Source of the DNA: a virus | Lineage: Duplodnaviria > Heunggongvirae > Uroviricota > Caudoviricetes | DNA length: 13,819 nucleotides | Virus record (IMG/VR): IMGVR_UViG_2534681934_000027 | Reading direction: 5' to 3' (one strand) | Part shown: positions 9,001-12,000 of the stretch, one piece after another | Layout: each line of letters starts with the position of its first letter | How positions within the stretch are numbered: position 1 is the stretch's first letter | Position numbers: made by a program

Positions 9001-12000
9001 CCATAGAGCAGGAACGTCCGAAGGTTGCGCCGGAACTTACCGCAGCCTTTGAAAACTTTATGGACATGCACAGCCCGCAAGCCGTATCAGCTGGCATGGC
9101 ATACGATGGCAGAAACCAGGGCGATGACGGCGACATCGATCGCATACTGAAAACCATCTGAGACAAGGCCGGAGAAATCCGGCTTTTTTACGGGTCCTTC
9201 CTGGAATTATGGCCCGTTACGGGGCGGCGACCTCGCGGATTTTCGCTATTTATGAGCCTTTTCAGGGTGGTGGTGGTGGTTTTGTTGTTTGATCTATCTT
9301 TATGAATGAAAAGGGAAAGATGCAAGCAATACACCAACCTGAAGCAGTAATTAAGTTGGTGTATTAATGAAATCTCATCTGATGAACAAAAAAACATGGC
9401 GAAAAGCTGCCGTGTAAGTGCGACAGCGTTCGACAAGTGGGGAGTAACTCCCGTTGAGCGTAAAGGCCGTGAGGCGTTTTATGATGTTGCCAGCGTGATA
9501 GAAAATAGGGTTAACAATGCAATTAGCCAGCTTATAAACGACAAAGGCGAGATTGACGATGATGAACTTTTACGAGTCAGGATCAGATTACTGACAGCAC
9601 AGGCAGAGGCGCAGGAACTTAAAAACGATCGCGATCGCGGTGACGTGATTGATACTGAGTTTTGCCTGTACGCGCTTTCAAAGCTGGCGAGTCAGATTTC
9701 ATCAATCATGGACAGCCTCCCGCTTACTATGCAAAGGAGCTTCCCACAGATTACCCCCGCCATGCTGGACAGGCTTAAAAGGGAAGTGGTTAAAGCCTGT
9801 AATGCCAGTGCCAGAGTTGCCGACATGAACCGCCCCGGGTTTCCTGGAGAGTGTTTTATCTGTGAACTCAGGCTGCCAGATCATCGTTTCCGATGGAAGC
9901 ATAATAAGCTTTTTCTGCTTCTGCCGGAGGAGTATGGCCCAGCCTTCCCAGCAATCGTCGATTGTTATACCAGTCCACCCACGTTAGTGTGGCCAGTTCC
10001 ACTTCTGCACGGTTTTTCCAGCTCTTACGGTGTATTACCTCCGCTTTGTAAAGACCATTGATGCTCTCAGCCATCGCGTTGTCATACGAGTCGCCTGTAC
10101 TCCCTGTTGATGCCAGTAATCCGGCTTCTTTTAGTCGCTCCGTATAGGCCAGTGACACATACTGAGAGCCTTTATCGCTGTGATGGATGGTGCCAGACGG
10201 ACGACGGGCCCACAACGCCTGCTCCAGCGCATCCAGCACGAATGTCGTTTCCATAGACGATGAGACCCGCCACCCCACGATGTATCCGGCAAACACATCA
10301 ATGATAAACGCCACATAGACGAAGCCCTGCCATGTGCTGACGTAAGTAAAATCAGCCACCCACAGCTGGTCAGGTCGTTCTGCCACGAACTGACGGTTTA
10401 CGCGGTCGCCTGCGGCAACGGCTTTCCGGCTGATGGTCGTACGGACCTTTTTACCCCGGAGAACACCGGCAAGTCCCATAACCGCCATGAGACGTGCCAC
10501 TGTACATCTGGCCACCCTGATTCCTTCCCGTAACAACTGACGCCAGACTTTACGCACACCGTACACCTGATGATTTTCATCGTATACGCGCTGTATCTCT
10601 CTCTTCAGCCAGTCGTCGTGCTGCGCACGGGCACTGCGTTTATCCGGATGATGTCGCTGTTGCTGACAATGGTAATACGTTGACGGGGCAATATGCAGTT
10701 CGCTGCATACCGGTCCGACCCCGTACTGCTCACGCAGCTTATCCAGCAGTGGCATCATTTTTTCCAGAGGCGGTCGAACTCCGCCTTCGCAAAATAAGCG
10801 GAAGCCTGGCGAAGGATATCGTTACTGCGGCGCAGTTCACGATTTTCACGTTCCAGCTCTTTCAGACGCTGACGTTCAGCGCTGGTGAGCCCACCATCAC
10901 CGCCCCCGGTATCCCGCTCATGCTGGCGAACCCAGACACGCAGAGTCTCCGGCGTACAGCCAATCTTTGGGGCAATGGAACAAATTGCCGCCCACTGTGA
11001 GTCATATTCATCCTGACTTTCCAGAACCATACGAATCGCCCGCTGACGGACTTCGGGGGAAAAACGAGTATTTTTAGTCATCCTGTTTACCTCTTTCTCA
11101 GGGAGTTTAGTCTCCAGGATTTCCGGGGCGGTTCAACAACCTCCCACAGATACTGGCTGATTACTTGAAAGAAACAACCGGAAACGTACCGGAAAAGTTG
11201 CTACAGAAGAAAGGCGAGTAACAGACGCGCAATTATTGAACAAAAATGAGAAAGGATCTGATAATGGCATTTTCTGGCTAAAATGCCTCGTGTCAGATCC
11301 TTTCTTTTTTTAATATTTTCATTGTTAAACAGTCTGTTACAGAGAAGAAGATCGGATCTGACTTTTGCCGGAAAATTCTCATAAACAGATAAAAACCGCG
11401 AGGTCGCCGCCCCGTAACGGGCCATAATTCCAGGAAGGACCCGACGACACCAGACTATCAGAGCGATGGGGGCACAATGACAGAAGCCGAACTACTGGGA
11501 TTAATCCGCCGCGTCGCCGGAATCAGCCAGCAGCATGACGAACAGGCCACACAGCCGGACAGCGTGACCGCTGAAAATTATGTGCGTGTTGTAGCGGAAG
11601 TGATGCGCCGTGATGGTATAGAACTTAATGGCGTTGATATGCGCAACATACGGAACCGCGTTCTTGAAATGCTGGCCTACAATCGCCGCGTTGAACTGTA
11701 TCGGGAGAAAGAAAAAATAACGTACCACTGGAAGAAGCCGGAACGGCTGCGGCGGTAACTTGCTGATATTCCCGATAACGCAAAATTGCGCTGGCTACAT
11801 CCTCACATCTGAGGACTGTTAATCAGAAGGCCGGAATATATTCACAAACTACGAAATTTTCGTAGTTTAATTAATGGTCAGATTAATCGCTAACCCGCTG
11901 ATATTTTCGGAAACCTCAATTTGAGGAAGTCGGAAGCGTCACCCTTCATATTCTGAATGGTCATAATGACCACGCAGACCATCAAGGCAACCACAACGAA

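Follow-up and report, generated by a model that had tools for sequence, protein, structure and literature searches.

Among islands that carry two cos sites, the best described relative of the element studied here is EcCICFT073, in which cos1 and cos2 were reported together with the protein RppA (Fillol-Salom et al., 2018, ISME J; Fillol-Salom et al., 2019, Mol Cell; PMC6092414, PMC6739421). Each of the two sites confers transfer on a plasmid, deletion of cos1 lowers the transfer of the island by lambda and phi80, and deletion of both sites abolishes it; the cosB of cos1 is recognised by RppA and the phage small terminase (TerS), and cos1 depends on Rpp (PMC6092414, PMC6739421). The review of Murialdo and Feiss (2022) discusses cos1 only (PMC9026076), and the words 'orientation' and 'inverted' occur neither in the two EcCICFT073 papers nor in the supplements examined (PMC6092414, PMC6739421). 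We analysed a stretch of 13,819 nt, hereafter the window (IMG/VR record IMGVR_UViG_2534681934_000027, Caudoviricetes), which represents an island in the chromosome of E. coli O157:H7 and its relatives, situated between roxA and phoQ, and which, by its sequence, is a cos-type phage-inducible chromosomal island (PICI) of the Gram-negative EcCICFT073 family. It carries two inverted lambda-type cos sites, termed here cos(+) and cos(-), around a small terminase gene (terS), and we think it reasonably probable that they are two packaging entry points with different specificities, cos(+) being the site of the island's own TerS and cos(-) a copy of a phage-class cos.

The window and EcCICFT073

In EcCICFT073, which we fetched from CFT073, the cos sites are inverted around rppA over 77 nt that are 82% complementary, and the cos sequences printed in the 2019 supplement place cos1 at the upstream (+) site and cos2 at the reverse-strand site, beside an open reading frame (ORF) of 93 amino acids (aa). 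The arrangement of two inverted cos sites is already a published feature of this family. Both elements occupy the roxA/phoQ site and have the same gene order, from int, alpA, rgdR, the replication genes, ssb and perC to the gpE-like and gpD-like genes and a 137-aa ORF, followed in the right part by a cos, a specificity gene, an inverted cos and the 93-aa ORF. In both, lambda cosN is present at the two sites, the right-hand cosQ is identical and the two cosB flanks differ from each other.

The two elements are distinguished by the specificity protein, a 180-aa Nu1-family TerS with an N15-like DNA-binding domain in the window as opposed to a 144-aa Rpp in EcCICFT073; by cosB1, the cosB of the first site, with three repeats in the window and a single R3-like site in EcCICFT073; by the class of cosB2, that of the second site, which is TCAGATCC in the window and CATGTCCGG in EcCICFT073; and by the replication gene, a RepA helicase in the window and a primase in EcCICFT073. 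The terS of the window is, in addition, broken by IS629. A homologue of Rpp, a protein of ~135-153 aa that heterodimerises with phage TerS, is not encoded by the window island, whose protein belongs to the Phage_Nu1 family. The island is of a known kind, in which TerS replaces Rpp and the cosB classes differ; the phage-class identity of both cos sites, the natural loss of cos(-) and the recurrent inversion of the cassette between the sites go beyond published work.

Anatomy of the inverted cos pair

A first-pass annotation of the window had described a 48-bp perfect inverted repeat whose two arms each contain cosQ-like and cosN sequence, and alignment bore this out: positions 9191-9238 are the exact reverse complement of 11396-11443 (48/48 identical), the bases flanking the repeat differ, and weaker similarity of the arms spans 76 nt (9191-9266 and 11368-11443, 69/76 matching). 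Perfect inverted repeats in shuffled versions of the window (n=100) reached 18 nt at most, and ~1e-21 pairs of 48 nt are expected. Each strand holds a single GGGCGGCGACCT, the cohesive-end sequence of lambda (Table 1), so that cosN is identical to lambda at 12/12 positions at both sites, and the window contains no further copy of GGGCGGCGACCT even allowing one mismatch. In both arms a conserved GGGTCCTT cosQ block lies ~30 nt upstream of cosN and the I2-like segment at bp 13-45 is 85% identical to lambda, the lambda-like order and spacing of cosQ, cosN and I2 being present at both sites. Past bp 45 the cosB flanks of both arms are unlike lambda and mutually unrelated, with ~42% identity over bp 46-100, and both face inward, in agreement with the distinct inward flanks that the first-pass annotation had assigned to the two copies.

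Without the insertion sequence (IS) IS629 the arms are spaced by 789 nt, as in an IS-free relative from O111:H8. Among relatives there are mostly two differing cosQ types, and perfect identity of the arms covers only ~25 nt around cosN. The perfect 48-nt identity seen in the window is a derived state in which the left cosQ has been homogenised to the right-hand type, and such homogenisation was found in 4 of 21 unique cassettes.

cosB repeats and phage counterparts

The repeats within the two cosB flanks were compared with those of lambdoid phages, with positions counted from the first base of cosN. The lambda-type repeats of lambda and 434 lie at bp 50 (R3), bp 108 (R2, inverted) and bp 151 (R1), and the TCAGATCC repeats of cos(-) at bp 50, 108 (inverted) and 150. 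In cos(+) the GGTTGGTG repeats are found at bp 42, 107 (inverted) and 132, together with a TTGTTGTTT motif like the R3 of N15. No R3, R2 or R1 was detected in cos1 of EcCICFT073, which fits the R3-only proposal of Murialdo and Feiss.

Both sites of the window have phage counterparts. An O55:H7 prophage, with lysis genes, cos, a 168-aa TerS and a large terminase (TerL), combines an N15-type TerS with a three-repeat cosB (GGTTGTTGT at bp 50, 108 (inverted) and 187), and the repeats of cos(+) are one base off those of this prophage; the combination of an N15-type TerS recognition region with a three-repeat cosB has been described as the 'Monarch' arrangement (Feiss et al., PMC4669245). The repeat core of cos(-) is found in the same register in Gifsy-1 of Salmonella, in prophage SerU-LTIIb and in the E. 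coli prophage p11A, the last with lysis genes, cos, terS and terL, and in all three the repeats lie directly upstream of the phage's own TerS. A scan with the exact R2/R1 motif had returned satellite-sized contigs only, as though cos(-) were without a phage counterpart; this view was discarded, the phage sites being one base off. Among 5426 E. coli genomes the p11A-type module is present in 223 and the O55-type module in 244.

At least 120 viral contigs, many with a length of 33-52 kb, contain the CATGTCCGG repeat pair of EcCICFT073 cos2. In these phage contigs the pair lies at bp 50 from a lambda cosN, and their cos aligns with cos2 at 78% identity and in all three repeats; downstream of this cos come a TerS of 169 aa, whose N-terminal domain is distinct, and a 642-aa gpA-like TerL. 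Judged by this alignment, cos2 is a copy of a real phage-class cos (VATQTEVARHLSL-type TerS class). Contig L125 and ~30 other viral contigs of 33-52 kb combine lambda cosN, the CATGTCCGG cosB and the TerS N-terminal domain VATQTEVARHLSLTDRQLRRLQK, and this domain, unlike those of lambda, 21, N15 and Gifsy-1, may represent a further packaging-specificity class. We also considered cos2 as the cosB of a resident helper, and the match is not exact, with one inserted base between the CATGTCGG of prophage 4 and the CATGTCCGG of cos2.

Among relatives, an N15-like TerS domain is paired with GGTTGGTG or GGTTGTTG repeats in cosB1, a phage-21-like TerS domain with CATGTCGG repeats, the type of CFT073 prophage 4, and Rpp with ACCACCACC (see also PMC9026076). 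Whichever of the two TerS domain types is present, cosB2 is of the TCAGATCC type and the C-terminal half of TerS does not change. Since cosB1 covaries with the DNA-binding domain and cosB2 does not, the comparison supports cos(+) as the putative cognate site of the island protein, with cos(-) predicted to be independent of it. The best phage match of the island TerS is N15 gp1 (44% identity); its first 60 residues are 55% identical to N15 and ~30% identical to lambda, phage-21-type and Gifsy-1 TerS, and its N-terminus aligns with the recognition region of N15 and of the O55 prophage (SATAFDKWGV in the island, SVQAFDKWGV in the phage region).

Survey of relatives

We surveyed 80 viral contigs that encode the 93-aa ORF, with relaxed criteria for the detection of cos. 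Two complete inverted cos sites were found around terS in 19 contigs, around rppA in 12 and around a cassette without an intact gene in 5; the 36 loci with two cos are all inverted, and none of the 80 contigs has a direct pair. A further 6 contigs carry cos(+) and terS with cos(-) cleanly absent, and in 4 the right-hand cosQ (cosQ2) and half of cosN abut the terS stop codon; 3 contigs are ambiguous, and cos is lacking in the remaining 31, which are capsid-forming islands or other contexts. Mosaicism of the cassettes is strong, and its breakpoints fall at cos and inside terS.

The cassettes without an intact gene form a third type (L040, L044, L060, L061, L072), whose cos1 is near-identical to the N15/Monarch-type cos of the O55:H7 prophage and in which a 3' remnant of rppA, in place of an intact TerS or Rpp gene, precedes a CFT-type cos2; such islands may rely wholly on the TerS of phages for either site. 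The cohesive ends of the two cos sites differ within one element in a divergent lineage (L009, L013, L022, L023, L025, L028), with GGGGCGGCAGAC and GGGGGTACGGATAC in L009 and lambda cosN and GGGGGTAGCCATAC in L022; the pair in L011 is identical. L009, L011 and L017 are further distinguished by larger inversions around the cassette, as part of rearrangements too complex to resolve.

Two proposed packaging entry points

The first-pass annotation had listed, among possible explanations of the second cos, packaging from either direction by helpers of different cosB specificity, and of those it named this is the one best supported by the comparison, in which both cosB classes have phage counterparts. 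What the aligned elements show directly is the anatomy, the registers of the repeats, their occurrence in phages, the change of cosB1 together with the DNA-binding domain, the loss of cos(-) and the inversion of the cassette. The island carries a self-contained cassette, cosB1-terS-cosB2, between two convergent lambda-type cosQ-cosN arms. Its TerS would bind cosB1 and recruit the large terminase of a helper, with cutting of cosN(+) and rightward packaging, and the unmodified terminase of phages of the Gifsy-1/p11A class would cut cos(-), with leftward packaging, the two specificities widening the range of helpers that could be used. The pairing of protein and site and the use of cos(-) by a cognate helper are what we infer from these sequences.

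The inverted orientation may be accounted for in the same terms. Packaging of the lambda type runs from cosN to cosB, and termination requires a cosQ upstream of cosN (Feiss laboratory). Owing to this polarity, each packaging series should ignore the opposite site and end at its own. A pair in direct orientation would yield genomes without the cassette, and an inverted pair would thus be the stable way to carry both sites; this argument is supported by the absence of a direct arrangement among the surveyed loci.

Several observations weigh against two functional entry points. Deletion of cos2 from EcCICFT073 raises transfer by lambda and phi80 (PMC6092414), though neither phage is of the class copied by cos2, and cos2 is not the cosB of prophage 4, the known resident helper. 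No resident prophage of either cognate class is evident in O157:H7 at the sensitivity of megablast, and the matches in O157:H7 are to generic cosQ-cosN only, plus part of terS with the p11A-type query. Of the ~50 cos-type islands in the survey, about 10 are without cos(-) through a clean loss or one that left a scar, and cos(-) is dispensable in view of these losses. Finally, R2 and R1 of cos(-), read on the + strand, form a hairpin with a U7 run directly after terS (fold -33.7 kcal/mol, z -7.3), and their conservation could partly reflect a role as the terS terminator.

The effect of the cos2 deletion, the natural variants that lack cos(-) or keep only cosQ and half of cosN, the mosaic cassettes and the difference of cos2 from the cosB of EcCICFT073's own helper would also be in line with cos(-) being a non-adaptive by-product of cassette exchange with phages at cos, which owes its persistence solely to an inverted orientation that renders it harmless. 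We regard this as possible but rather doubtful, since cos(-) keeps the complete set of R3, R2 and R1 in the exact lambda register in lineages with divergent spacers, cosN and cosQ, a full copy of a phage-class cos is present in each of two unrelated cassette types, and cos(-) is kept in most of the surveyed islands (36 as against 10).

Inversion of the cassette

The first-pass annotation had also considered the repeat as a footprint of inversion or recombination, which holds insofar as natural inversion isomers of the intervening segment exist. We built the junction of an inverted isomer (137-aa ORF, cosQ, cosN(+), then cosB2) and searched for it; the TerS-type inverted junction is present in at least 6 complete genomes. 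In the 3 isomers inspected, at three chromosomal sites, the flanking genes are unchanged and enclose a terS on the opposite strand, the two cosQ types keep their left and right places and everything between the two cosN is flipped, and the 3 inverted cassettes fall into three clades, each nearest to cassettes in native orientation. The RppA-type junction is inverted in 31 genomes, which may be clonal, and native in 69; the one RppA isomer inspected, at the phoQ site, has the same RppA accession as CFT073 on the opposite strand. On the evidence of these comparisons, the flipped cassette in nature derives from at least four independent events. With a terminator upstream, in the hairpin before cos(+), and its own terminator downstream, in R2/R1 of cos(-), the cassette looks transcriptionally self-contained, and its inversion should therefore be tolerable; both hairpins were missed by a simple terminator scan and are supported by folding.

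No invertase gene lies in or beside the cassette in the ORF list of the window or in its RefSeq annotation, where recombinases are limited to the integrase of the island, at a distance of 8 kb, and the transposase of IS629; IS629 is absent from the inverted isomers. One explanation, which we put forward as unlikely though worth stating, is that the inverted cosN pair makes the cassette a terminase-mobilised module that can be reinserted either way or swapped with a co-resident island or phage. A double cut at cosN would free a fragment of ~0.9 kb with the same 12-nt overhang at both ends and leave complementary ends on the backbone, and re-annealing and ligation could then give recombinase-independent inversion and a shuffling of packaging specificity. 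Such mobilisation would explain the breakpoints at cosN, the recurrent inversion and the mosaic cassettes, cosN and cosQ.

The TerS-type isomers, with their breakpoints at cosN, and the RppA-type junctions could alternatively be the traces of a functional invertible switch, the arms serving to change the direction of packaging, the pairing of cosQ with cosB or the expression of terS or rpp. We consider this improbable: the segment has no invertase gene within it or next to it, every genome is fixed in a single state, the terminators on both sides of the cassette should leave expression unchanged on inversion, the direction of packaging has no obvious consequence on a circular or concatemeric substrate, and the 31 inverted RppA-type genomes may represent a single clone.

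The island is bracketed by a 75-nt att direct repeat (seen in L001, L002 and L003), with copies 12.3 kb apart in the presence of the IS and 10.98 kb apart in its absence, and both cos sites belong to one element because this single attL/attR pair encloses them. A junction between adjacent elements or an assembly artefact, both raised by the first-pass annotation and favoured by no more than the general expectation of one cos per cos genome, has a negligible chance of being the explanation, given the enclosing att pair, the presence in 354 complete genomes of the entire window with its IS and in 564 of the IS-free module, the inverted cos pairs in independent metagenomic contigs, and the same geometry in EcCICFT073, verified experimentally there.

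The terS gene and its IS629 insertion

According to the first-pass annotation the two cos sites flank terS; a Nu1-family terS does lie between them, though as a gene split by IS629. The inserted copy is 99.9-100% identical to annotated IS629, has its terminal inverted repeats (I3) and is bordered by a 3-bp ACA target duplication (9823-9825 and 11136-11138). The insertion costs TerS its C-terminal 27 residues, which by analogy with lambda Nu1 (PMC9026076) would include the TerL-binding region, and with this C-terminus removed the cos(+) packaging route is probably disabled in the window. In addition, an A7 tract at 9388-9394, which is A8 in relatives including the IS-free L002, places the first ATG (9367) out of frame, and the open frame of terS in the window runs from the ATG at 9396. 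Either a true mutation or a sequencing error in the homopolymer could account for the A7 tract; between the window and its best genome match, DEC4E, there are two single-base indels.

An intact 180-aa terS is found in the O111:H8 copy of the island, which is without the IS, and the intact 180-aa orthologue at L002:12359-12901 matches Pfam Phage_Nu1 over residues 33-148 (E 3e-23) and has the length of lambda Nu1. The island TerS has no similarity to RppA by BLASTP (E 3.4), and a sequence search of solved structures, RppC among them, gave no meaningful match. We tried to read the TerL class of the helper from the C-terminus of the island TerS and rejected the attempt, the C-terminus resembling no phage class well (20-39% identity) and ending in a unique tail. 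This 13-residue tail is absent from the TerS of lambda, 21-type phages, N15, Gifsy-1 and PhiR5_1. The tail sequence ETTGNVPEKL.Q.KGE ends every island TerS, with any DNA-binding domain, as in the window (11138-11223), L009, L022 and L120.

Island context

The features of the window are collected in Table 1. Its early region is partly decayed, and no lysis, tail, portal or terL gene is present in the ORF list of the window or in the RefSeq annotation. The RgdR of the island agrees in length and RGD position with ECs1581 (RgdR), an activator of LEE type III secretion, which has 99 aa and RGD at residues 20-22 (PMC3378721). The 93-aa ORF beside cos(-) had been considered as RgdR and was rejected, RgdR being the DUF4222 protein; the 93-aa ORF has no Pfam match. 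A repeat hairpin (D1, GCCGGAG(A/C)AATCCGGCTTTTTT) occurs in three copies, at 6527-6556, 6890-6919 and 9163-9192, each after a gene block, which suggests that D1 hairpins are reused intrinsic terminators partitioning the late region. The attR coordinates are approximate, as they were converted from locus L001, which is two single-base indels apart from the window.

Table 1. Features of the window, from left to right, with the cos sites and their repeats.
Feature	Position	Strand	Description
attL	~20-95 nt left of window start		75-nt direct repeat
Integrase (tyrosine recombinase)	1..1230	+	Pfam Arm-DNA-bind_3, Phage_integrase
AlpA-family regulator	1605..1793	+	Gram-negative PICI hallmark; Pfam Phage_AlpA, E 5e-17
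Icd-like cell-division-inhibitor pseudogene	1851-2444		RefSeq; intact short Icd-like ORF follows
RgdR, accessory type III secretion regulator	3686..3985	+	Pfam DUF4222; 99 aa, RGD at residues 20-22
RepA-type helicase	3982..5382	+	Replication module; Pfam AAA_25, RefSeq
SSB	5831-6241		Pfam, RefSeq
PerC	6252-6524		Pfam, RefSeq; virulence-regulator homologue, in addition to RgdR
Lambda gpE-like capsid protein	7332-8387	+	Pfam Phage_cap_E
gpD-like decoration protein	8400-8735	+	Pfam HDPD
Conserved 137-aa ORF	8748-9161	+	Capsid-region gene order as c1499/c1500 in EcCICFT073
Terminator-like hairpin and U-run	9166..9189	+	Third D1 copy; ends capsid operon directly ahead of cos(+); fold -16.6 kcal/mol, z -4.2
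cos(+), published cos1 position	9191..9366	+	cosQ block 9191-9221, cosN 9222-9233, I2-like 9234-9262
cosB1 of cos(+)	9263-9272 (R3-like); 9328-9341 (R2, inverted); 9353-9365 (R1)	+	R3-like CAGGGTGGTG
N15-like motif in cosB1	within ~9277-9290	+	TTGTTGTTT
terS 5' fragment	9367..9825	+	Nu1 family, N15-like DNA-binding domain
IS629/IS1203 in terS	9826..11135	-	1310 bp; orfA 10755-11081, orfB 9868-10758; Pfam rve, HTH_Tnp_1
terS 3' fragment	11138..11223	+	NLPQILADYLKETTGNVPEKLLQKKGE*, C-terminal tail common to all island TerS
cosB2 of cos(-)	11353-11363 (R3); 11291-11305 (R2, inverted); 11249-11263 (R1)	-	R3 AGTCAGATCC
cos(-), published cos2 position	11243..11443	-	cosQ block 11413-11443, cosN 11401-11412
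Conserved 93-aa ORF	11477..11758	+	Island right end; 219 relatives in IMG/VR; also in capsid-forming PICIs, including Sakai Sp7
attR	~12205..12279	+	75-nt repeat of attL, core GGTGTAGTTAATGGTGTAGT
phoQ	12359-13819	-	

Relation to other known systems

Two packaging entry points of different specificity would answer, in a form open to test, the question raised in the literature as to why certain PICIs have a pair of cos sites: one cos would be private to the specificity protein of the island, Rpp or TerS, and the other would copy a different lambdoid class. The earlier comparison of cos2 was limited to lambda, phi80 and prophage 4, none of them of the matching class, and this may explain why its phage cosB was not recognised and why its deletion appeared beneficial. 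If this reading is true, satellites that carry RgdR and PerC, both regulators of type III secretion, would have a wider range of helpers than has been assumed, and that range could be predicted from the cosB sequence. The recurrent inversion between terminase cleavage sites may, in turn, reveal a new mechanism of rearrangement.

At the same attachment site, the capsid-forming PICI Sp7 of Sakai (CP-933C or O-island 51 in EDL933) shares with the window the integrase family, RgdR, SSB, the PerC-type gene and the 93-aa ORF; it differs in encoding an HK97-type capsid, protease, portal, adaptor, terS and terL and in having no lambda-type cos pair. The Sp7 locus (L244) corresponds to Sakai NC_002695.2 1594711-1610171, and the two satellite types alternate at one O157:H7 attachment site. 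Published packaging data for Sp7 (OI-51/CP-933C) were considered for the window island and set aside, because Sp7 is a different island at roxA/phoQ. With the segments inverted by Hin, Gin and Cin, and with shufflons, the cassette has in common that it is short, bounded by inverted repeats and found in both orientations in nature; unlike them it has no dedicated recombinase, its repeats are terminase cleavage sites and its orientation is fixed in each genome.

The lambdoid cos classes (lambda, 21, N15/Monarch and Gifsy-1) share with both sites of the window the order cosQ-cosN-I2-R3-(I1)-R2-R1 with an inverted R2, the IHF site I1 being putative in the window; cos(-) has the lambda register, and cos(+) combines N15-type recognition with a three-repeat cosB, as in Monarch. 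The window differs from these phages in that a satellite of 11 kb, without large terminase, portal or tail genes, carries two back-to-back sites that differ in class, and in the 13-residue C-terminal tail of its TerS, which was absent from the phage TerS examined. A parallel in strategy is offered by the Staphylococcus aureus pathogenicity islands (SaPIs), in which a TerS of the satellite's own redirects the helper terminase or, as in SaPIbov5, a helper-type cos is carried, and of which SaPIbov4 also has two putative cos sites (PMC6092414). The SaPIs are Gram-positive elements of unrelated sequence, their TerS strategy is one of headful (pac) packaging, and the SaPI literature examined describes no element that combines a site for its own TerS with a copy of a phage site. 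The TerS-type cassette indicates that cos-packaged Gram-negative PICIs also use the own-small-terminase strategy of the staphylococcal islands.

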